Shown in pieces: positions 1 to 62,221 of a stretch of DNA of 64,000 nucleotides. The position numbers were made by a program, and so were the translations under genes. Source of the stretch: Acidobacteriota bacterium (lineage in GTDB: Bacteria > Acidobacteriota > Blastocatellia > RBC074). The stretch spans positions 643 through 64,642 of the forward strand of contig JAHBSF010000012.1 of the NCBI GenBank assembly GCA_019639255.1, given 5' to 3'. The first letter of the stretch is position 1. The number at the start of each line of letters is the position of its first letter. The notes beneath the pieces were generated by a model. It had not been told where the DNA came from, searched no databases, and saw only the letters and a list, made by a program, of their open reading frames with translations.

Positions 1-172
1 GCGTCCTGCCGTCAGCGCCGTAAACGACTCCGCTTACGGTCAGCCTTTCCCCGGGTTCGTCTTTTGATGTAATCGTGATTTTTGAAGAAGCATTGGCCTC
101 AGCAACCGTCGGCGCCTGCATCTCTACAGGCAGTAACCACAGAAAAACAGGGAACAGGAAAATCAACTTCAT
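1..172 (-). CDS. secreted protein, N-terminal fragment running off the left edge
   Basis: Not in the ORF track (open at the edge, under 60 aa). The reverse-strand ATG at 172 reads [57 protein letters not shown] with no stop down to position 1. This is a Sec-like signal peptide followed by a beta-sandwich-like GERLTVSG motif. Confidence 0.45.
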
Positions 173-258
173 AACTACCTCCATTGATGGATGGAACACG
201 CCGAATGCCTGGAATCGTACCCTTCCGTTTGTTCCGTTTGTCCGGTTTGCTCAGTTAC
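133..258. repeat. palindromic GATAACGGAAC-family element R0 (degenerate)
   Basis: The right arm at 221-258 contains CCGTTTGTTCCGTTTGTCC. The left half at 133-172 aligns, with short deletions, to the family's half sequence. Confidence 0.4.
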
Positions 259-355
259 AACATCCGTCGGTCTTTCGGCGGCGCTTCGGCTCAATTCCCT
301 AACACAATCTTTTAGACAGCGCTCGAGCGAGATTTCTTCCGTAAATTTATCGACT

Positions 356-481
356 CAGAATACAGAACACACGAAATGAAACTTAAATTGCGGAGAACTT
401 GAATATTTTCGTCTATTCCGACTTTTTTCGTTTGTTCCGTTATCTCTCTTTTTTGTCTAAATGTCGTGTGGAGTGATTTAG
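356..481. repeat. family element R1 (core 356-449 plus tail module)
   Basis: ...CACGAAATGAAAC...CTTGAATATTTTCGTCTATTCCG..TTTCGTTTGTTCCGTTATCTCTC, followed by the tail TTTTTTGTCTAAATGTCGTGTGGAGTGATTTAG. Confidence 0.8.
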
Positions 482-555
482 CAAGGTTTGCCGAAATCAA
501 CCGAAATCTGTACTATCTGACCTTCCGCTGTTTGCCGAATCAAGGCAGGTATTGT

Positions 556-1143
556 GTGACATCATTGGGTCTTCCCCTTGACGAATTCATTCCGCAACCC
601 GACGTGCAGGAACGTTTCTCAATCAAAGTGCACGCTCCGGCAGCGACGGTTCTGGATACGGCGTGCAACTTCGATATGCAATCGCCGCGGCTCGTAAGAA
701 TGATATTCCGTATGCGCGAACTCCTTATGCGCGCTTCCGTCGCGCAGAAACGCAAGCCGCAGGGGTTGCTGGAGGAAACCCGCGCGCTCGGTTGGGGACT
801 GCTTGCACAGACGCCCGGACTGATTATTTGCGGCGCAACGTGCCGGCCGTGGGAAGCCGACGTTACATTTACGCCCATTGCACCGCAGGAGTTCACCGCG
901 TTCGCCGAACCCGATTGCGTGAAGATCGCCTGGAGCCTGGAAACGGAATCCATAACGCCGGAAGTCACGGTGCTTTCACAGGAAACCAGGGTCGTTTCGA
1001 CGGATGCGCAGGCGAGGCTTAAGTTCCGCCGCTATTGGCGATGGGCGCGATTCGGCATAATCGCCATCCGATTGCTGCTGCTTCCAGCCGTGCGCCGTGA
1101 AGCCGAGAAACGATGGAGAAAAAGCGGCAGGCCAAGGCAGTAA
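556..1143 (+). CDS. hypothetical protein (function unknown, possibly SRPBCC-like)
   Basis: ORF 466..1143. The first 16 nt (466-481) lie in the tail of a repeat element. There is an in-frame GTG at 556. No diagnostic motif was recognised. Confidence 0.45.
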   Translation: MTSLGLPLDEFIPQPDVQERFSIKVHAPAATVLDTACNFDMQSPRLVRMIFRMRELLMRASVAQKRKPQGLLEETRALGWGLLAQTPGLIICGATCRPWEADVTFTPIAPQEFTAFAEPDCVKIAWSLETESITPEVTVLSQETRVVSTDAQARLKFRRYWRWARFGIIAIRLLLLPAVRREAEKRWRKSGRPRQ

Positions 1144-1302
1144 CTCTGTCGCAGTTATTACTGAAAATTCACACGTGATCTGAACGCCGCTGGGAGGCGC
1201 TTGACAGGGCTTTTGCTGCAGCGCCTTACATGACAGAATACGCCGGAGTCGGTGGTGAAAGTCTCGACGACTCGCAATAACAGGGTTCAAAAGGGTGGAC
1301 GA

Positions 1303-3860: not shown

Positions 3861-3988
3861 GAGATAACGGAACAAACGAAATGAAGCGAAAATTACGGAA
3901 TGGTTGAATATTTCCGTCTGTTCCGTCCATTTTCGTTTGTTCCGTCATCTCTCTTGTACACCCCGATGTCGTGTGAATCGATTTTCAG
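3861..3988. repeat. family element R2 (core 3861-3954 plus tail module)
   Basis: GAGATAACGGAACAAACGAAATGAAGCG...TTTCGTTTGTTCCGTCATCTCTC, followed by the tail ..CCCGATGTCGTGTGAATCGATTTTCAG. Confidence 0.9.
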
Positions 3989-3996
3989 GTACAGGC

Positions 3997-6656: not shown

Positions 6657-6784
6657 GTGATGTAACGGAACATACGACATGAAACCAAAATCACGGAAAA
6701 GTTCAATATTTTCGTCTGTTCCGTCTTTTTTCGTTTGTTCCGTTATCTCTCTTTTTTGTCTCAATATCGTATGTATTGATTCAA
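6657..6784. repeat. family element R3 (core plus tail module)
   Basis: GTAACGGAACATACGACATGAAAC...TTTCGTTTGTTCCGTTATCTCTC, followed by the tail TTTTTTGTCTCAATATCGTATGTATTGATTCAA. Confidence 0.85.
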
Positions 6785-10672: not shown

Positions 10673-10803
10673 GAGAGATAACGGAATAAACGAAAACTAC
10701 GGAAAGAAAACCCGACTATGCTTCTTTCCGTAGTTTTCGTTTATTTTCGTTTGTTCCGTTATCTGTCTTTTCTGTCCCGATGTGGTGTGAAGTGGTTTAA
10801 ATG
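10673..10803. repeat. family element R4 (core plus tail module)
   Basis: GAGAGATAACGGAATAAACGAAAACTACGGAAAGAA / TTCTTTCCGTAGTTTTCGTTTATTTTCGTTTGTTCCGTTATCTGTC, followed by the tail ..CCCGATGTGGTGTGAAGTGGTTTAAATG. Confidence 0.9.
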
Positions 10804-13355: not shown

Positions 13356-13544
13356 CAATCGTCGAGTGACGTTGTCCCATCCCTCGGATTAACGGTAAGC
13401 AGGAACGGATGAGAGATGACGCAAAAACCGGGATTGAACCTGACACTGGGGGAAGGCAGTTGCTTTCCGCAGTATTGTCTTGATCCCGATTGCTGCGTCA
13501 TCCCTTTTTCGTTCGTTTTTTGGTTCGGGAAAGGAGATCGGTTC

Positions 13545-14771: not shown

Positions 14772-14798
14772 CCGCACCCCCCGGAGAGAACGCGGAAA

Positions 14799-16172
14799 AT
14801 GCCCGGAATGAAGCCTAAATCGCCGGAAAACAGAGCTTCGTTTCGTGCATTCCGCGTTCTTTTCCGTTTGTTGCTCCCTGTGCTTGCTGTATCGTGCGGC
14901 GGCGAATCCGCAATCCGGACGACGGATGGGGAAATTCCGGCGGCCACACGTATAGAGTCCGAAGCAGATGCATCGGAAGCTACGATAAGATTTCTCGAAG
15001 ACCGCATCCGGCGCGATCCGGACGATTTCATATCGGCGAACAAACTCGGCGGCTACTACCTGCTGAGGCTGCGCGAAACCGGAAATACGGATTACCTGCG
15101 ACTTGCGCGCCGAACCGCAGATATATCCCTGCGTGCAATTGCTGCACAACAGAATCCCGGAGGCCTTGCGCTGCTTGCGCAGGCTGCGTTCGCCGAACAC
15201 GATTTTGAATCCGCGCGCCGCTGCGCCGAACAACTTGTAAAAATCGATCCCCGAAAAAGCTATCCATATCAACTGCTCGCCGACGCTCTGCTCGAACTCG
15301 GCGACTATGATGCGGCGGCAAAAATAATCGCCGAAATTGAGCGCAGCCCTTCAATAGACGACGGCGGCGCGCTCAGGATTGCACGAATGGCCGCGCTGCA
15401 CGGGCAAACCGCTCGCGCAAGAGAGTTCTACGGCGCAGCGCTTGCGCTTTCGCTCGAAGTGGTACCTCCGTCGCGCGAGGGCGTAGCGTGGCGGCGCTGG
15501 CAAATCGGCGAACTGGAGTTCAACGCGGGCCGCTACGACGCGGCTGAAAGGCATTACCGCGATTCGCTAGAGACGTTCCCGAACTACTATCGCGCGCTCT
15601 CCGGACTCGGCCGCGCGCGCGCCGCGCAGGGTGATGTTCCAAACGCAATTGAATTTTACGAACGTGCTGCGCGGCTTGCGCCCGAACCCGCAACCTTGGC
15701 CGCGCTCGGCGATTTGTACGAACTGACGGGCCGCAGCCGCGAAGCGCAGGCGCAATTCGATCTTGTTAAAAAACTGGGGCGCATAGGCGAGGCTGCGGGT
15801 TCGGTTTATAACAGGCAGCTTGCGATTTTTTTCGCCGATCACGACATCAACGCCGAGGAAGCATACGAACTGGCAAGACGCGAATACGAAGTTCGGCGCG
15901 ACATATACGGCGCAGATGCCCTTGCCTGGACCGCGCACAAAGCCGGCAGAGCAGATAAGGCCGGCGAGGCGATTCTTGATGCATTGAAGCTGGGCACGAA
16001 AGACTCGCGAATCTTTTATCACGCGGGTATGATTGCGCGCGCTGCGGGCAACCCGGTGGAGGCAAAAAAATATCTTGAACGCGCGCTGGCACTCAGCCCG
16101 CAATTCGATCCGCGACACGCACCCGTTGCACGACAGGCGCTCGAAGCGCTGAAAGCAGATAACGGAATGTAA
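14799..16172 (+). CDS. TPR-repeat lipoprotein
   Basis: Possible lipobox LAVSCGG followed by multiple TPR repeats (YRALSGLGRARAAQGDVPNAIEFYERAARLAP...). The last codons GAT AAC GGA ATG TAA duplicate the repeat-arm word GATAACGGAA. Confidence 0.7.
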   Translation: MPGMKPKSPENRASFRAFRVLFRLLLPVLAVSCGGESAIRTTDGEIPAATRIESEADASEATIRFLEDRIRRDPDDFISANKLGGYYLLRLRETGNTDYLRLARRTADISLRAIAAQQNPGGLALLAQAAFAEHDFESARRCAEQLVKIDPRKSYPYQLLADALLELGDYDAAAKIIAEIERSPSIDDGGALRIARMAALHGQTARAREFYGAALALSLEVVPPSREGVAWRRWQIGELEFNAGRYDAAERHYRDSLETFPNYYRALSGLGRARAAQGDVPNAIEFYERAARLAPEPATLAALGDLYELTGRSREAQAQFDLVKKLGRIGEAAGSVYNRQLAIFFADHDINAEEAYELARREYEVRRDIYGADALAWTAHKAGRADKAGEAILDALKLGTKDSRIFYHAGMIARAAGNPVEAKKYLERALALSPQFDPRHAPVARQALEALKADNGM

Positions 16173-16185: not shown

Positions 16186-16308
16186 AAGATAACGGAACAA
16201 ACGAAAATACACGAAACAAACAGATCAAACGGAACAAGCGCAGTGACCCGGATGATCCGATCCCTTTTCGTTTGTTTCGTGTATTTTCGTTTGTTCCGTT
16301 ATCTCTCC
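16186..16308. repeat. family element R5 (long-loop copy)
   Basis: AAAGATAACGGAACAAACGAAAATACACGAAACAAAC ... GTTTGTTTCGTGTATTTTCGTTTGTTCCGTTATCTCTCC. Confidence 0.9.
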
Positions 16309-18576
16309 TTCCCCGCTTCAAGGTTACCCGCCATCGCGATTCTCTGTTGCGCCACTCTCGCCGTATTTGCGCATCCCCTCGGCAATTTCACCGTGAATCA
16401 TTACGCGCGCATCGCTGCCGCTCCCGAACGCGTGCAGATACGCTACGTGGTCGATCTGGCCGAAATACCCACGTTTCAGGAAGCGCGGCTTGCGGATCTG
16501 GACGGTGACGGGATGCTGTCGCAATCGGAGTTGAACGCTTATCTGTCGCGCGTGGCGCCGGATTATATAAACGGCCTGAGCCTTAAGGCGGGCGATCAAA
16601 CGATTGCGCTTTCGGTTTCGGCGCAATCCATTACGCTCGTGCCCGGCACGGCAGACCTGCCCACGATGCGCCTTGTGTTCGATCTTGTGGGCGTTGTCGG
16701 CGAGACGGATCAGCAAACGCGATTTCGGTTCGAGAACGGAAACGGGCGCGACCGTGCAGGGTGGTATGAACTGGTGGTAATTCCGCTGCCGGGCGCTGCC
16801 GTCTTCAACAGCACGATTTTCGGCAACGGCGTCACCGACGAATTGAAAGCGTATCCGGAAGACCTGCTGATGGCGCCGCTCGCCGAACGCGCAGGACAAT
16901 GGCATACGGTGCGGGGCGCAATTCCCGAGGGAGCGCAGCCGTTGAAACTGCGCGACGGCCGCACGGTTGCAGCCGCACGCGACCGGTTCGCCGAACTGAT
17001 TGCGGCGCCGCAACTGACGTTCAGCGTAGCTCTGCTCGGCGCTCTAATAGCGTTGTTTCTCGGCGCAGGCCACGCATTGACTCCGGGTCACAGCAAGGCG
17101 CTTGTGGGCGCGTATCTGATAGGCTCGCGCGGAACGGTCAAACACGCGGCTTTTCTCGGCCTCACGGTGACGATTACGCACGTAAGTTCGGCCTATGCGC
17201 TGAGCCTGCTGCTCATAGGCTTCAGCTTCCTCGCGCCTGAAAAAATACAGATCATTCCTGCAATCATCTCAAGCCTGGTAATTCTCGGCATGGGATTGAC
17301 GCTTTTTGTGCGCAGACTGCGCGCCGCAATCGAAGGAACGCAGCACTCTCATCACGATCATCACCACGAGCATCACCACGAGCATCATCATCATGATCAC
17401 CATCACGATCACCATCACGATCACCATCACGATCCCGGGCACTCGCATTTGCCTCCGGGCGCAGGCGGCGAGCCTGTCACTTGGCGGAGTCTGCTAGCGT
17501 TGGGAGTTTCGGGAGGGCTGCTGCCCTGTCCGTCGGCGATACTGGTCGTGCTGGCGGCAAACGCGCTCGGGCGCGATCTTTACGGATTGCTGCTCGTTTC
17601 GGCGTTCAGCCTCGGACTTGCGGGCGTGCTTACCGGGATCGGCATCGTATTCATAAAAGCTGGAGGTTTATTGAACGTATCATCGCGCACAGGGCGGCTG
17701 GGCCTGGTGTTGAAGTCTTTGCCCGTGGCAAGCGCAGCGTTCATAGCGGGAATTGGAATGCTGATGTTGTACCAGGCGCTCGATTCTGCAGGAGTAAACG
17801 CCGCGAGTCTTTTTGGGGAACCGCAATCGATTGCTGAAGGTGCGGGGACGGCGTCTATGTTGTCGGTGCTGGGAGTTGGTCTGGTGCTCGGGCTCAAACA
17901 TGCCGTAGAAGCCGATCATCTGGCGGCAGTTTCTGCAATCGTGAGCGAGGGCAGAAGCCTGCTCGGTTCGTCGCTTGTGGGCGGAATGTGGGGACTGGGA
18001 CACACGATCGCACTACTGATTGCCGGCATGATTGTGATATTGCTGAAAGTACAGATACCGGAGCGCGTGGCGTTGGGGCTCGAATTCTGTGTAGCGATTA
18101 TGCTTATAGGACTCGGCGTCAACGCACTTTTGAAGGTGCGACGCGGCGCCCGCCTGCACTTTCACACGCACAGGCACGGCGACATAGTGCACTCGCATCC
18201 GCATATGCACGAGGGAAATGAAGCCGATCATACACATTCGGAGAAAGCCGCCCCTCACCACCGAGTAAATCGGGGGCTGCGCCCATTGCTCGTAGGGCTC
18301 GTGCACGGTATGGCGGGCAGCGCGGCTCTGATGCTGCTTGTAATTCCGACGATTCCGTCTCCGGCGCTTGCGCTCGTATATATCGCCGTATTCGGCATCG
18401 GGTCGATAGGCGGGATGATGGCTATGAGCACGCTCGTCGGGCTTCCGATGCATCTTACGGCGCAGCGGTTCAGGCGTGCGCATATTGCGGTAAGCGCACT
18501 CGCTGCGCTCTTCAGCCTTGGCTTCGGAATCTTCCTTGCCTATGAAATCGGTTTTGTCGAGGGATTATTGAGATAA
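16252..18576 (+). CDS. three-module Ni/Co transporter fusion: periplasmic N-terminal-His/EF-hand domain, RcnA-like half with poly-His loop, NiCoT-like half
   Basis: Predicted signal cleavage VFA/HPLGNF. EF-hand loop DLDGDGMLSQSE (16495-16530). GAGHALTPGHSK (RcnA-type). 30+ residue His-rich loop. LKHAVEADHLAAV (HX4DH NiCoT signature, 17899-17919). The start is uncertain: ATG 16252 or TTG 16291, both inside repeat R5. The TAA stop lies inside repeat R6. Confidence 0.7.
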   Translation: MIRSLFVCFVYFRLFRYLSFPASRLPAIAILCCATLAVFAHPLGNFTVNHYARIAAAPERVQIRYVVDLAEIPTFQEARLADLDGDGMLSQSELNAYLSRVAPDYINGLSLKAGDQTIALSVSAQSITLVPGTADLPTMRLVFDLVGVVGETDQQTRFRFENGNGRDRAGWYELVVIPLPGAAVFNSTIFGNGVTDELKAYPEDLLMAPLAERAGQWHTVRGAIPEGAQPLKLRDGRTVAAARDRFAELIAAPQLTFSVALLGALIALFLGAGHALTPGHSKALVGAYLIGSRGTVKHAAFLGLTVTITHVSSAYALSLLLIGFSFLAPEKIQIIPAIISSLVILGMGLTLFVRRLRAAIEGTQHSHHDHHHEHHHEHHHHDHHHDHHHDHHHDPGHSHLPPGAGGEPVTWRSLLALGVSGGLLPCPSAILVVLAANALGRDLYGLLLVSAFSLGLAGVLTGIGIVFIKAGGLLNVSSRTGRLGLVLKSLPVASAAFIAGIGMLMLYQALDSAGVNAASLFGEPQSIAEGAGTASMLSVLGVGLVLGLKHAVEADHLAAVSAIVSEGRSLLGSSLVGGMWGLGHTIALLIAGMIVILLKVQIPERVALGLEFCVAIMLIGLGVNALLKVRRGARLHFHTHRHGDIVHSHPHMHEGNEADHTHSEKAAPHHRVNRGLRPLLVGLVHGMAGSAALMLLVIPTIPSPALALVYIAVFGIGSIGGMMAMSTLVGLPMHLTAQRFRRAHIAVSALAALFSLGFGIFLAYEIGFVEGLLR
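17395..17430 (+). repeat. 3 x 12-bp in-frame tandem repeat (GATCACCATCAC) encoding (DHHH)n
   Basis: Read directly. Each unit carries a GATC site. It sits within the His-rich coding stretch at about 17344-17450. Confidence 0.9.
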
Positions 18577-18663
18577 CGGAACAAACGAAATGAAACGAAA
18601 AAGACGGAAACATTCAACTTTTTCGTCTTTTTCGTTTCATTTCGTTTGTTCCGTCATCTCTCT
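18570..18663. repeat. family element R6 (near-perfect 37-bp stem)
   Basis: GAGATAACGGAACAAACGAAATGAAACGAAAAAGACG - 17-nt loop - CGTCTTTTTCGTTTCATTTCGTTTGTTCCGTCATCTC. One mismatch. Confidence 0.95.
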
Positions 18664-21899: not shown

Positions 21900-21993
21900 G
21901 AGAAAATACGAAACAAACGAGATGAAAGGAAAATTAGAGATAAGTTGAGTATTTCCGTCTGATCCGTCTTTTTTCGTATGTTCCGATATCTTC
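21900..21993. repeat. family element R7 (diverged)
   Basis: GAGAAAATACGAAACAAACGAGATGAAAGG...GTTGAGTATTTCCGTCTGATCCGTCTTTTTTCGTATGTTCCGATATCTTCC. Confidence 0.75.
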
Positions 21994-28179: not shown

Positions 28180-28205
28180 AACTGAAAATCGTACGTCAGC
28201 AAAAA

Positions 28206-28290: not shown

Positions 28291-28297
28291 TTCGGAT

Positions 28298-34706: not shown

Positions 34707-34763
34707 CTTTGTTCCTGCTTCCCCTTCCCTTTTCCCGTTAACCCGATAAGCGTGAGACGGCAA

Positions 34764-36054: not shown

Positions 36055-36571
36055 GACGTTTTTCTGCTCCTTCTCGTGCGCGGCGTGGGCCTGAGCGTGA
36101 TGCCGCGCCAGTTGATTTCTATTTTCCAGCCGATGGAATTCAGTTGCAGGCTCATGAAATTGCCTCCGCATCGACAAAGCTCGCACCATTGCGTGCGCCT
36201 GTGAACGATGAGCAACTTCGGCCGTTAATGGGCCGAATCAGTTAACTGAAATTTCGGGAAGTTTTGCGAAGCGCAGGCTTCACGCGGCTAGCTACAACAA
36301 CAGGTGTGACAACAACAGGGAGCGAAAGAGGAGGGGGAAGCGGTCTGAGCGGAGGAGGAAGTCTGGCCGAAGGCGCGGGAGTTGTCAGAGGATCGTTCGC
36401 CTGAAGATCCTCCCCAGGCATCTGCCCGGTTATTTAATCGACTGAATCGACTTATCATCGTTACCTCACTTTACGCGGTACATACACAAACAAACGTTCG
36501 AGTCTTATACACAGACGATTCCTCGCTTGTCAATAGCGTTGAATCAAACCCCGCGGCTTCGGGGAATAAAA

Positions 36572-36666
36572 GAGAGATAACGAAACAAACGAAATGATAC
36601 GAAAATTACGGAAAAGTTGAATATTTCCGTCTGTTCCGTCTATTTTCGTTTGTTTCGTTATCTCTC
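36572..36666. repeat. family element R12
   Basis: GAGAGATAACGAAACAAACGAAATGATACGAAAATTACGGAAAAGTTGAATATTTCCGTCTGTTCCGTCTATTTTCGTTTGTTTCGTTATCTCTC. Confidence 0.95.
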
Positions 36667-38850: not shown

Positions 38851-38942
38851 GAGAGATAACGGAACAAACGAAAATAGACGAAAATTACGAAATAGTTGGA
38901 TATTTCTGTCTGTTCCGTGTTTTTTCGTTTGTTCCGTTATCT
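38851..38942. repeat. family element R13
   Basis: GAGAGATAACGGAACAAACGAAAATAGACGAAAATTACGAAATAGTTGGATATTTCTGTCTGTTCCGTGTTTTTTCGTTTGTTCCGTTATCT. Confidence 0.95.
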
Positions 38943-42454: not shown

Positions 42455-42549
42455 GAGAGATAACGGAACAGACGAAATAAACGAAACAAACGGAAGTGTA
42501 TATTCTTTTTCGTTTGTTCCGTATATTTTCGTTTGTTCCGTTATCTCTC
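42455..42549. repeat. family element R14
   Basis: GAGAGATAACGGAACAGACGAAATAAACGAAACAAACGGAA..TTTTTCGTTTGTTCCGTATATTTTCGTTTGTTCCGTTATCTCTC. Confidence 0.9.
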
Positions 42550-45165
42550 TTCCCTGCTGAATGTAACGCGGCGCCAGACCGAAGCCTCACCGTCACGCTC
42601 GATCAATTCCCTTACAGCCGACCAGCAAGCTGCGTACAGCGCATGCATTTCTTCGCTCGATGACACGCGCGCCAAACGTCGCTCGATTTCATCAACAGGC
42701 AGCTTCGCGCGCGACATTGATCTCGTATACTTCGGCCCCTCACCCGCAAAATGAATTGCCAATCCTTCGGCAAGCCAGCGCGGCGCGCGCCCGCCGCCCA
42801 TAGCTTCGATTACCGCATGAGCATATTCGTGCCGGAGCGTCTCCATCAACACGCCCCTTCTTTTAAGCACTTCCAGCGGCTGCAATGCAATGCGGTCGCC
42901 GCGCGTCGCCGCCGCCGTATATCCCGGCAACCCCGTGTCGGCTATGTATTCGGCGGTAGACGCGTGCACGTGCACCTCGATTCTGCCGCTGTCCTTCCAC
43001 GGCAATCCTGCGGCGCGTACCCTGCGGATGATATCCTCGCGCGACTCATCGAGAGTCTTCAAAATCAATTCGACATCGAAATCGGCGCCGCTGCGCGACG
43101 TTGTAATCAGAAAATGCCGGTTGCCGATCCGCGCTCGCGCCTGCTTGCGATAAACGACGTTCTTCAAGCCTGCATTTTCGATCCGATCAATACTGGCGAT
43201 CCTGGCCGCCGGAAAATAATGTGCAAGTATTCGTGTGAAATCCGCGCCCCTTCGCGCCGCCGTATGAGATCCGTCCTGACAAAGTCCCAGCCCGTGTCCG
43301 AACCCGCTGCCCCGGAAATGAAACTCGGCTCCAGCGCGCACGACCTCAAACTTCGTGCTCTTGATCAAATGCCAGCCAAGCGCCCTGCCGACGATCATCT
43401 TGAAATCCCAGCCACGCACTCGCCGCCTCTCGGCGCCCTCTATCGTCAGCCACTTCACCCTTCCGCTTGCATCGCGCTCTGTGACCTCTATTCCTTCAAT
43501 CCTTGCACCTGCATCCGTTCTCGGATCGGTCCTCAAGGCCCGCGCCAGATCCTTTGCCGATATGCGGTCCAACCATCGGCGGGCGTCGCTCGCCGTGCAG
43601 TACTCATCGCGTATACCGCGCACGCTGTTTGACGATGCGCTTCCCCATACCGCCTCCGTATCGGAAGTAGCGCCGCCGCACGAAGCGTGAAAATAACTTT
43701 CTACGGGATTGTTTTCGTCATCGGTAAGAACCGTCCCTGCGGTTTGCTCAACCGCCTCGCGCACTGCATCCCGTACGGATCCGTCTACGTATCTTTGACA
43801 GTGAGTAGTGCTGCAATAATCGTATCCATCGCCCGCGTGCCTGCCGCCATTGAATAACGCATAGCCGCGCGCAACGACGGCCAATGCCTTGAGCGCCTCG
43901 ATTTCTGTTTCGGTTCCGGCTTCGGCCGTAACGACTCCGCGCAAATACTCATCCACCGTCATTTCGAGTACGAGATCCCTGCCGACGATCCTTACCCTCA
44001 CTGACCTGCCTTTCGTGCCGGGAACTGCATTCGAAACAGCCGGATGATGCTGCGCATCGATCAACGCTTCTATTATTGGACGCGCAACACGCGCGGCAAC
44101 CGCGCCCTGCGAGCGTTTGAGAAACACAACCACGCCCGCTGTTATCTGCTCGGGACGCGGATTTGGTCCCTCGCCCAAAAAGGCGACGAACCAGCCCTGC
44201 GTGCGAAAACCGTTGCTGGATGTAGAAGTGCCCGTTTTACCAAAAACCGACCAGGCATTACCTCCCTGTGAAGCAACGGGCCAGGGGCCGGCCGAACTTG
44301 CCGTGCCGTATTCCACTGCGCCGCTCATACCTTCCAGGATCGCCACTCTGTGCTGCCCGGAAATCGCAAGCGTGCGAACGGGTTCGGGCTGCAAGCCTTC
44401 GTTCGAATGAGGGCGGTATAGGCGCCCGCCGTTTACAAGCGCCGAATACGCCGAAATCATCTGCACGGGAGTGACGAGCAGTTTTTCGCCATCGCCCAAT
44501 GCTGTTTGTTCCGTCAATTCCCCATCGGGCAACCTGCCCGGAATTTCATCGGCCCAATCGACTCCCGTTCGCTCGCCGAAACCGAACGAAGCAAGTGTGG
44601 ATTCAAATGCGCTCGAGCTTAACCGCGAGCCTGCGCGCGCGAAATAATCGTTGCAGGAGTATGCAAGCGCCCGCCGCAGATCAAACGGCACGGTGCTTCG
44701 TTTGTGAGAACATTCGATGGAAAAATCTTCGCGCACATACCGTCCGCTGCACAGATGGTGCGTGCTGGGAGTGAGAATGCCGGAACGAAGAGCAGCCAGC
44801 GCAGTAAAGGGTTTGATCGCCGATCCGGGAGGATGGGCCTGACCAGATGCAAGACGGGGATTGACGACCGCACGCAGAAACCCGGTTTGAGGATCGATTA
44901 CAAGTATCGCGCCTTCGCGCTCGCCGAGCGCTTCTGTTGCAACCCTCACGAGGTCGCCGGCGGCAGGCGCCGAAGGGAGCGATTCGTTTGCCGGAGATTG
45001 CGTTGGTCGATCGCTGCACGCGGCACACAGCACTGCGATCGCCAGAAAACAGCAACGGAATAAATGAAATAATCGGAATGGAACGGAACAAACAGAAACC
45101 GAAAAACATTTCGCGTATTCCGTCTCATTCCGTTTATTCCGCGGTTGATGCCCTTTTGTTTTCAT
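42541..45165 (-). CDS. three-domain fusion: PBP transpeptidase, SpoIID-like domain, MA-clan Zn-peptidase-like domain
   Basis: SxxK (GSAIKPF), SxN (YSCNDYF) and KTG (FGKTGTS). SpoIID signatures (CSTTHCQRY, FHASCGGATSD). HEYAH plus PRWLAEGLA at the C-terminus. ATG 45165 overlaps the upstream stop as ATGA. Codons about 8-38 are repeat R15 and the TAA stop is in R14. Confidence 0.7.
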   Translation of the reverse strand: MKTKGHQPRNKRNETEYAKCFSVSVCSVPFRLFHLFRCCFLAIAVLCAACSDRPTQSPANESLPSAPAAGDLVRVATEALGEREGAILVIDPQTGFLRAVVNPRLASGQAHPPGSAIKPFTALAALRSGILTPSTHHLCSGRYVREDFSIECSHKRSTVPFDLRRALAYSCNDYFARAGSRLSSSAFESTLASFGFGERTGVDWADEIPGRLPDGELTEQTALGDGEKLLVTPVQMISAYSALVNGGRLYRPHSNEGLQPEPVRTLAISGQHRVAILEGMSGAVEYGTASSAGPWPVASQGGNAWSVFGKTGTSTSSNGFRTQGWFVAFLGEGPNPRPEQITAGVVVFLKRSQGAVAARVARPIIEALIDAQHHPAVSNAVPGTKGRSVRVRIVGRDLVLEMTVDEYLRGVVTAEAGTETEIEALKALAVVARGYALFNGGRHAGDGYDYCSTTHCQRYVDGSVRDAVREAVEQTAGTVLTDDENNPVESYFHASCGGATSDTEAVWGSASSNSVRGIRDEYCTASDARRWLDRISAKDLARALRTDPRTDAGARIEGIEVTERDASGRVKWLTIEGAERRRVRGWDFKMIVGRALGWHLIKSTKFEVVRAGAEFHFRGSGFGHGLGLCQDGSHTAARRGADFTRILAHYFPAARIASIDRIENAGLKNVVYRKQARARIGNRHFLITTSRSGADFDVELILKTLDESREDIIRRVRAAGLPWKDSGRIEVHVHASTAEYIADTGLPGYTAAATRGDRIALQPLEVLKRRGVLMETLRHEYAHAVIEAMGGGRAPRWLAEGLAIHFAGEGPKYTRSMSRAKLPVDEIERRLARVSSSEEMHALYAACWSAVRELIERDGEASVWRRVTFSREER
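45052..45143. repeat. family element R15 (diverged, lies inside the 5' end of a CDS)
   Basis: GCAACGGAATAAATGAAATAATCGGAATGGAACGGAACAAACAG...GTATTCCGTCTCATTCCGTTTATTCCGCGG. Confidence 0.6.
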
Positions 45166-45911: not shown

Positions 45912-45952
45912 CGGTCACCTCCTCCCAAATCATACGAATTTGGGAGATAAAA

Positions 45953-46023
45953 GAGAGATAACGAAACAAACGAAATGAGACGAAAATCACGGAAAAGCTG
46001 AATATTTCGGTAGTTTCCGTTAC
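45953..46023. repeat. family element R16 (right arm truncated)
   Basis: GAGAGATAACGAAACAAACGAAATGAGACGAAAATCACGGAAAAGCTGAATATTTCGGTAGTTTCCGTTAC. Confidence 0.85.
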
Positions 46024-49000
46024 TTTCCCTCCTGCTTCCTGTCCATAAACGTCAACCGCCCGCCCGATGTGTTGGATTGAACCGTAGGCTGATACATCAA
46101 CTCGGCGCGCGCGGGCGCGATGCGAAACTCCCCCGGCGTAATTACACGCAAGGCATACTGGAACGTCGAATTTCCACTGAAATAATCGACGAAAATAGCG
46201 GTTCGCGCATCGCGGAACTCGCGCGCGCTGTACCAGTCGCTCCACTTCCCTTCCGAATAATCGAGGTTGATGCCGCTTACTCGCTCTACCTGCTCGCAAC
46301 CCGCAGGTATCGGGTCTTCGATCATCAGGTATTGCCCGCGCGCGCCCTCCACGCGCAAACGCGATACGATCAGATCGCCCGATCGCAACTCGCCCGTAAG
46401 CGGTTCCACAGCCCATCGGGATTTTCCGCCGCTTTCCGTCACATTCAGCCTCAGGTACTCGCGAGTCAGCTTTAACTCCGGTGTAGATTGCGCGGCAATA
46501 TTATCGTCCTTTGTGAAGTAATCGAGCGTAGCGGATACATAAAGCGCCCCTCGCCCCTGCTTGACTACGCGAATCGTGTTGGCGCCCGCAATGTCAGCGC
46601 CCTTGCGCCCGATTTCAAACGTAGTGCCCTTCGTTGCATCGGCTGACGTGACTGTGCCGTCCATCACCATCTCGCCGTTGAGATAAACCTGAATCGTGTA
46701 GTCGGGCGCGAGTTCCCTGCTCACTTTCATATAATCGGTCAGCCCGAGCAGCGCAAATGCGGTTTGTTTCGTCGAAGCCCAGTAATAACCGCGCGAACGA
46801 TTTGCTACCAGCCAGCGTGCGAGCTTAGGCAGCAACGGGCTTTCGGGCGTAAGTGCAGCGAGGGCTTTCAGTCCGAATGCTGTCGCTTCGATATCGTTTT
46901 GCACCGAGAAGTCGAGCATCGGTCGGCGCTGCGATTCCCAGTGCGCATTGAAATCATTCACCTTTGCGAGCTTCTCAAGTTCCGCCGCAACCTGGCGCGC
47001 GCGGTCCGCGTCGTTTCGCGCTTTGAGCGCGAGCGCAAGCAGCGCCCGCCCGTAAGGCTGCAACTCCTGCCTGCGCGCAAACAGGTCGTTGATGTATTTT
47101 GCGTCGGCCTCTCCGCTTGTCACGTAGGCATAAACCAGATAGGCGCGATCTTCGGCGTCTATGCCGCGCCCGCGTTCGTTTTTGCCCGCATCGAGCAGTG
47201 TGCGTATGCTTTCGCGTCCGCGATTGATTCTCCACGATTCGACGGCAAACCCCGCGCGGCGCGCCTGCGCAAGCCCGTCAATCACGTAAGCCGTCATAAA
47301 CGGATCTGTCTGATCGTCCTTCCACCAGCCCCATCCGCCGTCGGAATGCTGATATGCATAAAGCCGATCCAGCCCCCGTTGAACCTTTTTGTCCAGATCG
47401 TTCGTCGCGCGAAGCGAAGTAGTGTTGACCTCCTTGAGCGTCTGCGCAACTACGACGTTAGGCAGAAAACTCGACATCGTTTGCTCCGTACAGCCGTAGG
47501 GAAAACTCGTCAGGTAATCGAGCGCGCCGAAAAGCGTACCGGCTATGGAAGGAGCGGCTTCGATCCTGAGCGTCCTGGCGTGACTGTTTGCATTCGCGGG
47601 CATTTCGAGCGTGAGTGTGCGCTCGCCGCTCTCGCCCGTAAGCGTTTCGGTCGCACCCCGGGTTTCCTTGAGACCCGCCGGAACTACGGGCAGCGGCAGC
47701 TCCACTGCATCCGATTCGGCGTCGGTAAGCGCCTTTGCGAGCAGCTTGATTTCGCCTGCCTGCGCTGCGGATATCCGCCAGTTAATACGCTGCTCTCCCT
47801 GTTTCGAAACCGTAACGGTTTGCGTCGGTGAATCGAGCAACTGCCCGCCTGCAACTTCAAGAGATATCCGCGTGGATTTGTCCGAGTCCAGATAGTTATG
47901 CACTATGCCGGACAGCGTCACCGTATCGCCCTCGGTTGCAAAACGCGGTGTTTCCAGTCTCAGTATCAGATCCTTGCGCGATAGCACCTTCGATACCGCG
48001 CCGCCGACCCTTGTACCGGCAGTCACGGCGCGAGCCGTTGCGCGCCACGTCGTAAGGTTGTCGGGCAGATTCACTTTCACCGTAGCCCGACCGTCCGCAC
48101 CTGTAACGAGGTTGGCCTGCCAATGCGCCGTATCCCTGAAGTCCTTACGTATGGTCGGCTCGGCATACTGCGCTTCATTCTTGAAATCCGCGAGTTGAAA
48201 CCCGCGCCTGCGCCCGGCGAGCTTTACCGCTTTTTCCGCCGAATGCCCGGTGAAGTTGTAACTCGTCGAAAAATACGTATTGACGCGGTTGTAGCGCCTG
48301 CCGTAAAAAGCGCGGCGAATATCGCCGGAATTTTCGGGCCTGATGCTGTAAATCGCCTCATCGACTACACCGAGGCTGACCTCGGCGCCCGGCACGGGTG
48401 CACCGTCCGCTCCGCGCGCAAGCACGGTGTAAGACGCCACGTCGCGCGGTTTGTATTCCTTCTTGTCGGCGAGTATTTCGATGCTCAGGAATTTGTCGCG
48501 CGCGGGTACGGCGAGCATCTTGTCGCTTGTGTACATTTCGCCGTCCCTGACGTATGCAACACTCAGGTAAACATTCGGAGCATATCGTGCCTCGATCGGT
48601 ACTTCTATCATCGCTGCGCGCCCGGCCGAAGAAATGTGGCGGGCGGTGATAACGCCTGCGAGTTCGGTAGTGACGAGCAGGTGCGCCTTGTCGGTGGGCA
48701 ACATTGCGAGCACACGGGCCGTATCGCCGGGCTGGTAGGATTTCTTGTCCGGTATCAGCTTGATCGAACCGTAATCCTGATAGGCGAAATCAGACCATTT
48801 ATCGCTGCTGTCGGCTACCCACATGTAACCGCCCAGAGACGCTACTTTCTTTCCACCGTCATCCACGATCGTTCTTATCTGAATGCTGCCCGTAACGGGA
48901 ACCTTGAAATCGTAACGGCTCTCGCCCTGAGCGTCGGTCGTCGTTTCACCGGTTGCGATTTCGGTTTCGCGCAGTTTGTAGTCGTAGCGTTTATATTTGC

Positions 49001-52944: not shown

Positions 52945-53049
52945 GAGAGACAACGGAATAAACGGAAACAGACGGCATAGACGGAAGGAATCCAATCGGC
53001 ATTTTCTTATCGTCTGTTCCGTCTGTTTCCGTTTATTCCGTTGTCTCTC
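52945..53049. repeat. family element R17 (variant arms with matched substitutions)
   Basis: GAGAGACAACGGAATAAACGGAAACAGACGG ... CCGTCTGTTTCCGTTTATTCCGTTGTCTCTC. This is a perfect 31-bp inverted repeat. Confidence 0.9.
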
Positions 53050-54715: not shown

Positions 54716-54773
54716 AGACAATATTTCCGTCTATTCCGTCTTATTTCGCTTGTTCCGTTATTTCTGTTTTATG
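54716..54773. repeat. family element R18 (right half only)
   Basis: AGACAATATTTCCGTCTATTCCGTCTTATTTCGCTTGTTCCGTTATTTCTG. Starts directly after the response-regulator stop. Confidence 0.75.
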
Positions 54774-59274: not shown

Positions 59275-59287
59275 AATTCACCTCTGC

Positions 59288-59362
59288 GAAATAAGACCGA
59301 ACATACTAAAATATTCACTGTTTTGTAATTTTCGTTTCATTTCGTTTGTTCCGTTATCTCTC
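59288..59362. repeat. family element R19 (left outer arm missing)
   Basis: GAAATAAGACCGAACATACTAAAATATTCACTGTTTTGTAATTTTCGTTTCATTTCGTTTGTTCCGTTATCTCTC. The right half is nearly identical to R10. Confidence 0.85.
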
Positions 59363-59397
59363 GCCTTACGGTTTGTACCGATCTGCTTTGGCTCGGT

Positions 59398-60003
59398 TTA
59401 AGCGCGTTCGGCCAGATACGGCGCAATGCGTCTGCGCATCTCGGCGCGCGCCCGGTGCAGATCGGTTTTCAGCTTCCCTATCGAATATCCCGTAATTTCG
59501 CTTATTTCCTCATAACTCTTTTCGTGAAATATCTTCAGACTGAACACCGTGCGCTTGTCGTCATCGAGCGTTGCAAGCGCCCGCGAAATGGCTTCGTTCA
59601 ATTCCCTGTCTCGCATCATCCCCTCGGGCAGCAGATCCTTCGATTCCAGACGCTGGCTTTCCGGAGTGTCAAGGGGAATATGTTTCTCGTCGCGCCGCGC
59701 CTGCCTCGAAGCCTCGTAAACTACATTGCGCGCTATTCCAAAAAGCCAGGTCGAAAAGCGCGCTTCCTCGCGCAGAGCCTTCAGATTGCGGTGTGCGCGG
59801 ACGAAAGTCTCCTGCGCCAGATCCTCGGCCAGATCCCGATCCTGCACCAGATGATTGATGAAGCTGAGGATCGGACGGCCGTAGCGATTGAAGATGAGGT
59901 GAAAGGCCTCCTCATCGCCATCCTTCGCCCGCGCAACCACGCCCGGCGCCAGCTCTCCAAACGCCATTCCTTTTCGTCCCGCCGTCGCGGTCCCGCTGCT
60001 CAT
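59398..60003 (-). CDS. ECF (RpoE-like) sigma factor
   Basis: Region 2 ([37 protein letters not shown]) and region 4 ([21 protein letters not shown]). Confidence 0.85.
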
Positions 60004-60163
60004 TCCCCTTCAGGCCTTTTTGTTACCGCAGCCGGAGCCGCTCACGTTACAACACCTTTGCGCTTCCCTGTTCTGTTCAGTCAGTGTAATCCGAACCGAA
60101 AAGGTTTCAATACTCCGGCCGGAAAATTGACTCGACCGCACTGCATTGTGATATAAGCCGCCT

Positions 60164-61126
60164 ATGCAACACATTCTGGTAACAGGAGGCGCCGGCTTCA
60201 TTGGCAGTCATCTCGTAGATCGCCTCCTGGCGCAACAAGATACCTGCGTCACCGTCATCGACAACTTCGATGATTTCTATAACCCTTCAATCAAACGCGC
60301 CAACCTCGCCCAGCACGCCGCAAATCCCGGGCTCGAAGTCATCGAAGCCGATATTCGCGATACGGGGAAACTTGAGCATGTGGTTTCGGCCGCGAGATTC
60401 GATGCAGTAGTCCATCTCGCCGCGCGCGCCGGTATTCGCCCCTCGCTCGACCAGGCGCCGCTTTACGCCGAAGTCAATATACAGGGCACGCTCAAACTGC
60501 TCGAACTTGCGCGCCGCTTCAGCCTGCCGCGCTTCATCCTCGGCTCCTCGAGTTCCGTTTACGGCACGCATACTCCATCCCCATTCCGCGAAGACGCGCC
60601 TCTTGCACCGATTTCACCCTACGCCGCGACGAAGGCCTCGGCCGAAATGTTCGCACACGTTTACAGCAGGCTGTATGACATGCAGGTTGTCTGCCTTCGA
60701 TTTTTCACCGTATACGGCGCAAGGCAGCGTCCCGATCTCGCGATACACAAATTCGCACGGCTCATCACCGCCGGACGCCCCATTCCCATTTACGGCGACG
60801 GCTCCTCCGAACGCGATTACACCTACATAGACGACATCATTGACGGCGTTATGGCCGCGCTCAGTTACGACTCTACGCGGTTCGAAATAATCAATCTCGG
60901 CGAATCGCGCACCGTACCGCTGCATTACCTGATCGAACTGCTCGAAGATGCTCTCGGGACAAATGCGGTGATCGAACGATTGCCCGAACAGCCCGGCGAT
61001 ATGCCCCGCACGCACGCGGATATCACCAAAGCAGAACAACTGCTCGGTTATCGCCCGTCAACCGCGATAGAAGCCGGCATCCGCAAATTCATCGAATGGT
61101 TCGAGCGTCAGCCCTTGGGCGCGTAG
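60164..61126 (+). CDS. NAD-dependent nucleotide-sugar epimerase/dehydratase (SDR family)
   Basis: [14 protein letters not shown] Rossmann motif and a YxxxK (YAATKAS) catalytic pair. Confidence 0.85.
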
Positions 61127-62142
61127 TAGCCGTTGCGCGCGCGCGCCGCATAGCCGTTTTTCTTGACGCGCACGGTGATTTTGCGAAACGCGCCGTTGCG
61201 AGCTTCGTTGGAGGAATAGAACCCGAGTATGTATTGCGTTCGCAATTGTTCGGCAAGCGTCGAGAATATGGCGTTCAGATCGGCAAGCGTCTGCTCGTCT
61301 GCGGCGGCGTCGGCCGGTCCGGAGCGCGGACGCGGAAGGAAGAGTTCGCCCCCGGTTTCGGAAGTGAGCGCGGCGAGCGCGCGCTCGGCGGCCAGGTCGC
61401 GTACATTCTGCGATGGCCATACGTTGCCCGTAAACACGGCGAAAATCATGGCGTCGGCGAGTTGAGATTGCGCAAGAGCGGATTTCAGATCCTTGCTGCT
61501 CGTCGTATCTCCACCGTCTGAAATGATGAGAATTATCCGCCGGCCGGGAGCGGTCTTAAGGTGCTCCGCAGCCAGGAAAATCGCATCGTAGAGCGAGGTG
61601 GCGCCCTTTGCGCGAAGTTGCTTCATGGCCGTAGTCAGCAGCGGAACCCGGTTTGTAAAATCCTGCAAAAGCGTGATGTCGGTTGCGAAGGAAAATAGCG
61701 CCGCCTGATCCTGCGGCCTCATTACACGCTCCAGAAACCGCGATGCTGCACGACGCTCGAATTCCAGCCGCGAAGATATGCTCAGGCTCGTATCAAACAA
61801 CATTACCAAACGCAGCGGCGCTTCCGAATCGCGAGCGAAATCCGTTATTTCCTGCGCTACGTCGTCTTCGAAGATTTCAAAATCCTCGCGCCCGAGTTCA
61901 CTCAATGCCCCGCTTTCGCGCCGCGTCACCGTTGTGACTACGGTAACCAGATCGCTCGCTATTCGAATCGTTCCGGCGTCGTCTCTAGGTTCATCCGCAG
62001 CCTTCGGACGCGGAAGCGGAGGTGGAGGAACCGGCTTGACCTGCTTGCCGCCCTTCGGGTCGCGCGTCCGCCCGCTCTGCCCACCCACGGGCAACCCAAC
62101 GAGCGCGACGAAGCAAAAACAGAAAGCGAGATAACGGAACAT
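61108..62142 (-). CDS. secreted VWA-domain protein (acidobacterial VWFA-related family)
   Basis: [35 protein letters not shown], then the VWA core ([12 protein letters not shown] ... [10 protein letters not shown]). The start ATG at 62142 lies in the outer arm of repeat R20 ([16 protein letters not shown]). Confidence 0.7.
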
Positions 62143-62221
62143 ACGAACTGAAACGTAATTTACGGGAAAGTTGATTATTTCCGTTGTTTCTGTCTTTTTT
62201 CGCTTGTTCCGTAGTCTCTCT
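62126..62221. repeat. family element R20
   Basis: GCGAGATAACGGAACATACGAACTGAAACG...GTTGATTATTTCCGTTGTTTCTGTCTTTTTTCGCTTGTTCCGTAGTCTCTC. Confidence 0.85.

Follow-up and report, generated by a model that had tools for sequence, protein, structure and literature searches.

A lineage-specific family of mobile palindromic repeats in the chromosome of a Blastocatellia bacterium

The chromosome of an Acidobacteriota bacterium of the class Blastocatellia carries a family of mobile palindromic repeats that is real, specific to its lineage and had not been described before. The family was characterized in a stretch of 64,000 nt of contig JAHBSF010000012.1 (assembly GCA_019639255.1), hereafter the window, in which 19 clear copies of a 95-bp hairpin-forming element are dispersed between genes. 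Copies are polymorphic between close relatives, and the element is therefore mobile. It probably represents a non-autonomous family of palindromic DNA elements, closest to the REPINs, which are hairpin-forming doublets of REP (repetitive extragenic palindromic) sequences.

Identification and density of the family

A search for the outer arm GAGAGATAACGGAACAAACGAAA on both strands, allowing up to three mismatches, gave 28 matches, against 0.00 expected from 100 dinucleotide-preserving shuffles. Once oriented by their loop, 10 copies could be aligned over 95 bp without gaps, and 13 aligned copies showed a mean column identity of 86%. The nhmmer profile built from the 10 ungapped copies (consensus of its 95 bp, GAGAGATAACGGAACAAACGAAATGAAACGAAAATTACGGAAAAGTTGAATATTTCCGTCTGTTCCGTCTTTTTTCGTTTGTTCCGTTATCTCTC) was scanned over the window and detected 19 clear copies from 357 to 62219, together with weak or remnant matches at 216-238, 8654-8683, 14785-14873 and 45054-45145. 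An extra related hairpin at 13403-13510 was found by comparison with the syntenic locus L088 (L001-L094 are labels of comparison contigs and loci). The 19 clear copies are thus accompanied in the 64 kb by ~5 old or remnant ones, in good agreement with the ~21 copies of the original prediction, which had been made from the DNA sequence alone. Its estimate of 3% of the DNA also falls within the values computed here: cores total 1,704 bp, or 2.7% of the window, rising to 3.3% with their flanking tails and to 3.8% with the old copies. The local density is ~297 (about 300) copies per Mb, and the density continues outside the window, with four further copies in the 9.5 kb that follow it on contig JAHCHF010000015.1 of the near-identical assembly GCA_026129895.1 (74 kb in all). 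The window is ordinary chromosome, with a G+C content of about 57-58%.

Several other features of that prediction could be compared with the alignment. The arm sequences and the loop motif were correct. The size of ~95 bp holds for the core but not for the entire unit, since the tails bring it to ~150 bp (one insertion measures 152 bp). The claim that copies stand at almost every gene boundary was overstated, copies being present in 19 of the 32 spacers of at least 40 bp, or roughly 19 of ~44 boundaries. The copy at 18570 had been singled out as the best stem (18570-18660, 41 nt, 95%), but longer arms occur at 52944-53050 (47 nt), and the 35-nt arms at 16187-16304 are 100% complementary. Nearest-neighbour identity among window copies is at most 89.5% and divergence from the consensus ranges from 4 to 16%; judged by these distances, the main family is not a very recent burst off one master.

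Searches for a known family were negative. At gathering thresholds, Rfam returned a single tRNA over the window and nothing else, so that the Rfam comparison suggested beforehand revealed no family matching the element; in E-value mode, just sub-threshold matches to plant microRNA precursors were obtained, which reflect a generic long hairpin. Nothing similar to the element was found in PLSDB plasmids, INPHARED phages or IMG/VR viral contigs, and the family was not found described in the literature searched on palindromic repeats in Blastocatellia or Acidobacteria; a search on STRR-type heptamer hairpins likewise yielded nothing of use. The element had been provisionally likened to REPs or bacterial interspersed mosaic elements (BIMEs), ERIC, Correia elements or MITEs (miniature inverted-repeat transposable elements) without being assigned to a named family, a description that stands: its copies are homologous, extragenic and polymorphic, with no database match. 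Also upheld were the lack of a transposase in the window (Pfam on 40 of 43 open reading frames (ORFs), plus precomputed Pfam annotations for two more) and the lack of an obvious target-site duplication, none being clean at the junctions examined.

Anatomy of the element

The core forms an imperfect hairpin of 95 bp with a small loop, and its consensus in the 13-copy alignment is GAGAGATAACGGAACAAACGAAA-TGAAACGAAAATTACGGAAAAG-TTGAATA-TTTCCGTCTGTTCCGTCTTTT-TTTCGTTTGTTCCGTTATCTCTC. Its two outermost 23-nt segments are nearly invariant and perfectly complementary to each other, and the inner part is variable. In the commonest type the inner arms pair partially and identical mismatches recur across copies, giving the core a definable orientation; the nhmmer scores of the two strands are 40-50 bits apart in most copies. 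The inner arms are purine-rich and composed of 9-10-nt words; in the 5' arm, ACG(G/A)AA words follow one another at intervals of 9, 10 and 9 nt. Predicted folds of the copies range from -30 to -78 kcal/mol. Variants with other inner sequences or extra arm units occur at 52946 (105 bp) and 16187 (~120 bp), as well as at 10673, 18570 and 42455 (95 bp), and their stems are still near-perfect over 35-47 bp. As read off the consensus, a stop codon occurs within 49 nt in all three frames from either end.

Two types of tails flank the core. T1, of ~33 nt (TTTTTTGTCnCRATGTCGTGTGnAnTGATT), lies on one side of eight copies and, within the window, is found exclusively beside cores; four of the eight end in ...GATT followed by TA. 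T2 is a weaker, T1-related sequence on the opposite side, one form of which resembles T1 minus 15 internal nt. With tails of 26-33 nt the unit reaches ~150 bp and is in its entirety an extended inverted repeat, the tails being its least conserved part and absent from about half of the copies. If copies are oriented so that T1 lies 3' of the core, their central 49 bp are direct in the copies at 354, 3859 and 6657 (82% identity to the reference) and reversed in those at 30406, 34764 and 36572 (82-88%, as reverse complement only). These opposite central orientations relative to T1 indicate that the core exists as 'flip' and 'flop' isomers.

Gain, loss and turnover among relatives

By segment, the window is 99.2-99.9% identical to JAHCHF010000015.1 (GCA_026129895.1), and 99.96-100% identical to Logan SRR12908343 contigs. 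Direct evidence of mobility comes from L004, a contig of 6 kb that matches window 30424-36630 at 96% identity but is without exactly 152 bp between sat and cysC. The junction reads GAACC-TAAATCAAAC...(31-nt T1, 95-bp core, 26-nt T2)...ATCGGGTTAA-CGGG in the window and GAACC-TGG-CGGG in L004. The same spacer is a plain 41 bp with no element in L094, and in L006 it measures 17 bp by gene calls or ~70 bp in the sequence view, with a one-armed (GCGGAAT)x4 run; in L010, L011 and L012 it contains unrelated hairpins and a tRNA gene. As the spacer is short and without the family in L004, L094 and L006, the difference corresponds to a gain in the window lineage. The two ends of L004 fall within copies 36572 and 30407, so that both copies are shared with the window; contigs from short reads break within copies. 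This 96% relative was sought at two more loci and was not represented there, the best matches reaching 84% (NicO) and 59% (kinase).

More distant comparisons revealed a turnover of families. L088, with 83-88% nucleotide identity and synteny with window 8965-21918, is without the hairpin at 10673 and without the copy at 18570, where it has a 24-bp spacer with a small native hairpin instead. It contains five hairpins in 13.4 kb (2155-2240, 4790-4890, 6150-6240, 7552-7650 and 10465-10551) of a sister family based on CGCGGAA(T/A)A words, being as densely occupied as the window, and a sister-family copy sits where the window has a spacer of 15 bp. L088 is without the window family, and the window is without the L088 family except for old copies. 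In the two older filled/empty pairs, 7 and 24 bp were replaced, with no direct repeat. The old copies at 14782-14870 and 13403-13510 are orthologous in both genomes and have therefore persisted through ~15% divergence. In the spacer between the tetratricopeptide repeat (TPR) and NicO-like genes, window and L088 each hold a copy of their own dominant type, which suggests replacement or concerted change in place.

Overall, the family was present in 5 of ~90 related loci. Among metagenome loci with a sat homologue, 1 of 80 carries it (837 kb including the earlier loci), and relatives with an 80% identical sat protein have none. The arm also occurs, among the matches listed, in diverged palindromic copies of two Blastocatellia metagenome-assembled genomes (MAGs); a further match among those listed, in Oscillospiraceae, has no palindrome and was dismissed as chance. 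From these comparisons, the range of the family is limited to a narrow clade, other families being found in sister species.

Decay of inserted copies and preservation of the hairpin

Inserted copies and propagating lineages behave differently with respect to the stem. In the 13 main-family copies, 74.8% of cells were paired, versus 75.1% in column-preserving shuffles; there was no covariation above the shuffles, and double changes were no commoner than expected by chance. Among 12 representatives of subfamilies and species variants, 92.8% of cells were paired versus 84.9% after shuffling (0/500 shuffles reach this value), a percentage inflated by the choice of representatives from well-formed hairpins. 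That choice does not inflate the counts of changes on both sides, which were also in excess: 13 pairs versus 6.7 expected and 30 cells versus 9.5 expected (0/500 in each case). As a control, sliding the partner by 1-3 columns lowered pairing to 38-56%. On this evidence, after insertion both arms drift independently, with no compensation. The simplest reading is that arm complementarity is required for continued propagation, which in turn suggests the recognition or processing of a folded single strand; it does not appear to be kept by selection at individual loci.

Genomic setting and effects on genes

All 19 copies lie within the 9% intergenic part of the window or overlap just the last codons of genes. 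They occupy 4/4 convergent junctions and 3/5 divergent spacers, the remainder falling between co-directional genes. The surrounding genes, as annotated with Pfam for 40 of the 43 predicted, are housekeeping in nature, including grpE, dnaK, leuS, lptE, a resistance-nodulation-division (RND) efflux pump, ATP-binding cassette (ABC) transporters, sulfate-assimilation genes, sigma factors, kinases and a cluster of penicillin-binding protein (PBP) and alpha-2-macroglobulin genes. Some copies are internal to operons: one separates the binding-protein gene from the permease and ATPase genes, with another copy following the ATPase gene, and one separates sat from cysC. In the gap between binding-protein and permease genes, the element and its tails occupy everything from the upstream TAA to the next ATG.

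Insertion has remodelled the 3' end of genes. The Ser/Thr kinase (38937..41774) ends in ...EFR via the AGA TAA of an element arm and is 6-8 residues shorter than 14 homologues, and the PBP (42541..45165) ends in ...REER (GAG AGA TAA), its L006 orthologue having a longer, unrelated tail. By comparison with these homologues, both proteins are truncated, and they end in the AGA TAA of the element. A similar role for the copy at 18570, whose tail would have encoded the C-terminus of the NicO-like protein, was rejected: 20 homologues keep the ending ...GFVEGLLR, and TTGAGATAA also stands in L088, where the element is missing, so that the AGA TAA at the element boundary is native. The native junction matches 7 nt of the element's own end (chance estimate ~0.003, for ~25 positions and two orientations), a single case that hints at homology-guided integration or a target preference. 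The last codons of the neighbouring TPR gene (...CAGATAACGGAATGTAA; 16148-16172) match the element end AGATAACGGAA over 11 nt, located 15 bp upstream of copy 16187 and with the same sequence in L088; this stretch may be a relic of an older copy now forming the C-terminus of the gene.

Gene prediction is affected as well. The longest ORFs of five genes (starts 3904, 6679, 16177, 28218 and 62232) run through copies, and the T-rich 3' arm translates as a hydrophobic stretch resembling a signal peptide, as in the NicO-like ORF from 16177. Such extensions are contained in public gene calls of orthologues, including P0121 (781 aa) and an L090 VWA protein (372 aa), and elements probably corrupt start-codon annotation in these MAGs.

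Possible mechanisms of dispersal

The element is probably copied in trans by an enzyme encoded elsewhere in the genome, able to recognize the folded single-stranded hairpin. New copies enter short spacers and the last few codons of genes and then decay without compensation, and lineages that continue to propagate retain complementary arms. Insertions would survive as they do little harm, with stops within a short distance in every frame. If transcribed, a stem of ~40 bp can act as a 3'-end barrier, a terminator or an RNase III site, and some copies, such as those at convergent pairs or the operon-internal copy between binding-protein and permease genes, have probably been co-opted. The analogy with REP and Correia elements makes co-option of this kind plausible at some loci. 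That the enzyme is a tyrosine transposase of the HUH type, either a REP-associated tyrosine transposase (RAYT), as for REPINs, or its relative TIRYT, is a tentative proposal, somewhat less likely to be right than wrong, though this is the likeliest candidate; the main alternative is a DDE transposase that acts on the ends. A REPIN/RAYT system fits better than a MITE moved by a DDE transposase with the lack of a clean target duplication, the weak conservation at the outer ends, the requirement for a hairpin, the vertical persistence and the restriction of families to lineages. TIRYT genes are, moreover, on record in Acidobacteria (PMC3733652).

Several observations weigh against the favoured reading. 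No transposase, integrase or Y1/HUH protein was detected with Pfam in the window, nor any transposase in the 9.5 kb beyond it, and a tblastn search of ~0.9 Mb of related loci with a RAYT sequence, a weak test, returned nothing. The sole clean junction is not a simple insertion, the 'GG' of the empty site being replaced, and a possible TA/TAA duplication does not fit the empty-site TGG. With no near-identical pairs in the window, recent activity rests on one polymorphism. The conserved ends, unlike REPs, are not small palindromes and have no GTAG or CGTC tag. The selection of well-formed hairpins among the 12 representatives, mentioned above, belongs here too.

A classical MITE, in which a deletion derivative of an insertion sequence (IS) is moved by a DDE transposase acting on terminal inverted repeats and generates a short duplication such as TA, appears unlikely. 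TA duplications are typical of IS630/mariner-type MITEs and of Correia elements, and here the whole unit is an extended inverted repeat, TA follows both ends of the clean junction (CC-TA-AATC...GGGT-TA-ACGG) and half of the T1 tails are bordered by the same dinucleotide, in a species that contains DDE IS elements. However, the empty site is CCTGGCGGG and not CC-TA-ACGGG; TA is self-complementary and could equally be part of the palindrome, and copy 6658 has TG...CA. Moreover, the outermost ends are the least conserved and are missing in about half of the copies, the opposite of what is expected of inverted repeats bound by a transposase. The sole IS seen shows a duplication of 8-9 bp, and its inverted repeats (CAGCAAATCCCGG) are unrelated to the element. 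This 1,673-bp IS was found in GCA_026129895.1 (L091 7624-9296), inside copy 42455-42549 (window 42470-42478), and is absent from the window and from Logan L092. It has imperfect inverted repeats CAGCAAATCCCGG/CAGGAATTCCCGG, a duplication of TTTCGTCT and an ORF of 422 aa that matches DDE_Tnp_1_assoc/DDE_Tnp_1 and IS4-type sequences weakly. This ORF was considered as the parent transposase and rejected: an IS4/ISAs1-like IS landed in the copy, and its ends are unrelated to the element.

We consider it quite improbable that the copies are host-selected structures, each maintained at its locus as a bidirectional terminator, an mRNA 3'-end stabilizer or a protein-binding site. Such a role would agree with the occupation of all convergent junctions, with operon positions (binding-protein/permease and sat/cysC) as for REPs in E. 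coli, and with the small native L088 hairpin in the spacer filled by copy 18570. A T run follows many copies, lying after the hairpin in the direction of transcription in four and before it in two, and, since the region shows no excess of consensus terminators (24 vs 26.2 expected), transcripts may end otherwise. Nevertheless, the main-family copies show no compensatory evolution, many are truncated or halved (26677, 45954, 54717, 59286), three lie between divergent promoters, and presence or absence varies between 96% relatives with the operon unchanged. Stems are A/T-rich and ~40 bp long, unlike the short G+C-rich stem followed by a U tract of an intrinsic terminator, and the terminator consensus scan called no copy, save a small GC hairpin in the tail of copy 36572. 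In a check of G-U versus A-C asymmetry, folding was not consistently better for the transcript of one strand than for that of the other, so that an RNA-level role is without specific support. Core orientation shows no significant bias, five cores running with transcription and three against it, and the counts for the + strand being 10 vs 4. Just one promoter-like match touches a copy, promoter-like sites being below chance expectation; the tails were considered as promoters or terminators, and consensus scans revealed no enrichment. Neither the covariation test nor the terminator scan thus supports a primary host function as terminator or stabilizer.

Two further origins carry far less weight. 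Local generation, by slippage of 7-9-nt words and fold-back synthesis in place with no transposition, is very improbable. It would account for arms made of tandem 9-10-nt words, for the variants at 16187 and 42455, which differ by whole arm units on both sides, for unrelated tandem-heptamer hairpins at other Blastocatellia loci, sometimes in the same spacer, and for the L006 one-armed run. It is largely refuted for dispersed copies by the 95-bp ungapped homology, which extends to a loop that is not repetitive, to conserved mismatches of the inner arms and to the tails, and by a 152-bp block that arises at once in an otherwise 96%-identical spacer, but it could be the origin of new subfamilies. 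Integron attC sites bounding gene cassettes, which share with the element an imperfect palindrome of ~60-140 bp, a position at gene ends and a high density, were rejected with near certainty: the genes are housekeeping ones (dnaK, grpE, leuS, lptE, sulfate assimilation, RND pump) on both strands and are syntenic in relatives without elements, no integrase is encoded in the window, and the ends are without the GTTRRRY core.

A more speculative extension, to which we give a low probability, is that lineage-specific 'word-built' hairpin populations form a class-wide system of Blastocatellia, turned over by a dedicated, possibly domesticated enzyme. The 5' arm would be a tandem 7-10-nt word and the 3' arm its complement, with ACGGAACAA here, GCGGAATAC in L088, and GATCGAG, GAGTGGG, TTGTCAG or GGATTGC elsewhere. 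The enzyme would read periodic words on a folded single strand, and populations might even be replaced in place, in the same spacer. Reading of periodic words would explain the flip/flop core and junctions resembling the element end (AGATAA), and, if true, would be a mechanism outside the REP/RAYT and MITE models.

Comparison with known repeat families

REPINs are REP doublets that form hairpins and are mobilized by RAYT transposases, as in Pseudomonas fluorescens SBW25 (PMC3116915). The element resembles them as a symmetrical unit of ~70-110 bp, with two conserved inverted ends around a variable hairpin-forming spacer, and as an extragenic repeat with no transposase of its own, lineage-specific families and long vertical persistence. 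The proposed REPIN intermediate is a hairpin with a single-stranded tail, and many copies here consist of a hairpin and a tail. REPINs reach hundreds per genome, the present element having been counted over 74 kb, and its density of ~300 per Mb exceeds that of SBW25, with ~560 doublets per genome. The SBW25 genome has a size of roughly 6.7 Mb. In contrast to REPINs, the ends (GAGAGATAACGGAACAAACGAAA, 83% purine) cannot self-pair and thus hold no REP; the consensus is without GTAG or CTAC, with CGTC just internal, within the inner arm on the right; the 74 kb showed no RAYT; and covariation is found between subfamilies and species only, whereas compensatory changes are common within REPIN families.

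In the same phylum, 'TIRtrons' have been described from Acidobacteria such as Koribacter versatilis, in which RAYT-like TIRYT genes are flanked by inverted repeats that recur (PMC3733652). These are likewise long, non-REP inverted repeats in dispersed families, attributed to a Y1 transposase. They differ in being moderately abundant and, for some, in a GGGGWSAS motif that is absent here, and no TIRYT gene is linked to the present element.

Prokaryotic MITEs are defined by terminal inverted repeats and a 2-10-bp target duplication, and a census of 183,232 genomes found a top density of 123 per Mb, corresponding to 1.23% of a Wolbachia genome (PMC11602168). Like MITEs, which need a transposase in trans, the element is small, non-coding and intergenic with inverted-repeat ends; these exceed the 10-15 bp asked of a MITE, yet conservation drops toward the outer ends (tails). 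It differs in having no clean duplication, the one filled/empty pair showing TA or TAA at both ends and TGG at the empty site, and no parent IS with the same termini was found among the IS seen or in the collections of plasmids, phages and viral contigs.

Correia elements (CREE/NEMIS) of Neisseria and ERIC/IRU sequences of enterobacteria are imperfect palindromes of 100-155 bp found at gene ends and inside operons, where they are co-transcribed as long hairpins, undergo RNase III or RNase E processing and can supply stops or promoters. Correia elements reach a density of ~100+ per Mb in Neisseria and have 26-bp terminal inverted repeats, a TA duplication and a site for integration host factor (IHF). 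Size, position and, by analogy, likely RNA consequences are comparable; on description, the element is set apart by its outer ends, here the least conserved part, and by the lack of a clean duplication. Among cyanobacteria, the STRR heptamer repeats are intergenic tandem 7-nt words, mostly in simple arrays or ~25-nt units, and small dispersed repeats are tiny mobile palindromic units with no target duplication. The STRR are likewise word-built and intergenic, but here the words form 95-150-bp hairpins with conserved loops.

Catalogue of copies and associated observations

Table 1. Copies of the palindromic element in the window, old related hairpins, and unrelated word-built hairpins at other loci. 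Bit scores are those of the two strands with the nhmmer profile.
Feature	Positions	Strand	Structure	Setting and relatives
Copy	357..447	+	84.1 vs 34.7 bits; forward core, loop TTGAATATT on + strand; left arm degenerate; T1 tail 449-484	between divergent genes
Copy	3861..3952	+	95.5 vs 50.1 bits; T1 tail 3954-3991	downstream of dnaK
Copy	6658..6750	+	91.8 vs 43.8 bits; T1 tail 6752-6789; T2-type tail left, ~6631-6657; ends TG...CA	downstream of DnaJ-domain gene
Copy	10673..10766	.	subfamily, own near-perfect inner stem; T1-like tail 10768-10805	lactate permease gene/tRNA gene spacer; hairpin missing from L088
Copy	16187..16306	.	long variant, ~120 bp; 35-nt arms, 100% complementary, three ~18-nt units	TPR/NicO spacer; diverged copy there in L088
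Copy	18570..18661	-	core only	between convergent NicO-like gene and lptE; native NicO AGA TAA codons coincide with element end; L088: 24-bp spacer, small hairpin
Copy	21901..21993	+	82.5 vs 23.1 bits; decayed	between divergent leuS and HlyD-family gene
Copy	26677..26754	.	left-truncated	convergent pair (AcrB-family gene and unknown gene)
Copy	28205..28291	+	short tail reaches next gene's ATG (28179)	downstream of ABC ATPase gene
Copy	30407..30499	-	T1 tail 30501-30536 holds upstream TAA stop; other tail ends at permease ATG	ABC operon, binding-protein gene/permease gene; common to 96% relative L004
Copy	34737..34888	-	152 bp: 31-nt T1, 95-bp core (34764-34858), 26-nt T2; sole insertion with exact limits	sat/cysC spacer; missing from L004 (96% nt), L094, L006
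Copy	36533..36666	+	nearest to consensus (4 differences); core 36572-36666; T1 tail left, 36533-36571	upstream of sat promoter/leader; common to L004
Copy	38852..38943	+	core only	convergent M28 peptidase and Ser/Thr kinase genes; arm gives kinase AGA TAA
Copy	42455..42549	.	subfamily; inner stem repeats outer arm unit	supplies PBP gene end GAG AGA TAA
Copy	45915..46027	+	right-truncated; core 45954-46027; T1 tail 45915-45952	downstream of alpha-2-macroglobulin gene
Copy	52946..53048	.	105-bp subfamily; arms 47 nt, both with same three consensus departures	
Copy	54717..54764	+	right half only	between convergent genes
Copy	59286..59361	-	left-truncated	Logan contig L090 ends within copy
Copy	62127..62219	+	decayed	between two co-directional genes
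Old hairpin	13403..13510	.	related family (GAGAGATGACGCAA...)	orthologous to L088 4780-4900
Old hairpin	14782..14870	.	CGCGGAA-word sister family	orthologous to L088 6150-6240 (by eye ~85-90% over aligned stretch)
Old decayed copy	45056..45145	.		upstream of PBP gene; same position as L006 copy 6472-6564
Unrelated word-built hairpins	L010 7711-7770, 9316-9390, 11528-11632, 15521-15612; L012 7647-7720			
Unrelated word-built hairpins	L001 1155-1230; L002 5663-5746; L037 2496-2579			

At other Blastocatellia loci, long hairpins without relation to the element have arms made up of 7-9-nt words in tandem, including (GATCGAG)x5, (GAGTGGG)x5, (GGCGACGGG)x3, (TTGTCAG)x4 and (ATTTTGG)x4, and some of these recur within one locus with the loop conserved. 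The sat-cysC spacer was struck independently by different hairpin families in different lineages. The tRNA gene found there in L009-L012 (sat protein ~80% identical), by eye a Cys tRNA with anticodon GCA, is missing from the window, L004, L006 and L094. Upstream of the sat-cysC operon, a 56-codon leader ORF (36288-36458, - strand) ends in ...APCCCHTCCCS, with six Cys in the last nine residues, and a second small ORF (36051-36155, - strand) reads MSLQLNSIGWKIEINWRGITLRPTPRTRRSRKTS up to its stop; both are kept in L093 and L094. From their sequence and position, these leader ORFs resemble an attenuator whose leader peptide senses cysteine.

A 19-T homopolymer (8727-8745) lies in the 344-bp spacer that precedes the lactate permease gene and is flanked by arm remnants (8654-8683 and 8967-9005), which are matched by remnants at L088 204-240. 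In L006, a PDDEXK_3-family gene (PF13366; 319-729) lies between the DUF1175/MagC and alpha-2-macroglobulin genes and has no counterpart in the window.

Significance

Much is known of dispersed palindromic repeats in Proteobacteria, Neisseria, Rickettsia and cyanobacteria, whereas in Acidobacteriota, among the most abundant soil phyla, they have hardly been studied. The present analysis provides a defined family, with its consensus, limits, tails and subfamilies, together with direct evidence of gain and loss between close relatives, and contrasts the neutral decay of inserted copies with the strict preservation of the hairpin in propagating lineages. In practice, copies break short-read MAG assemblies, mislead gene callers (ORFs at 3904, 6679, 16177 and 62232) and reshape the 3' ends of genes, the kinase and the PBP being examples, and they are possible strain markers. 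If the density over 74 kb (~300 per Mb, ~3%) holds genome-wide, it would be ~2.5x the census maximum of 123 per Mb (PMC11602168). The finding alone opens no new mechanistic question, but the periodic-word arms, the flip/flop core, the apparent in-place turnover and the wider occurrence of word-built hairpins in Blastocatellia are unusual features that may leave room for novelty.

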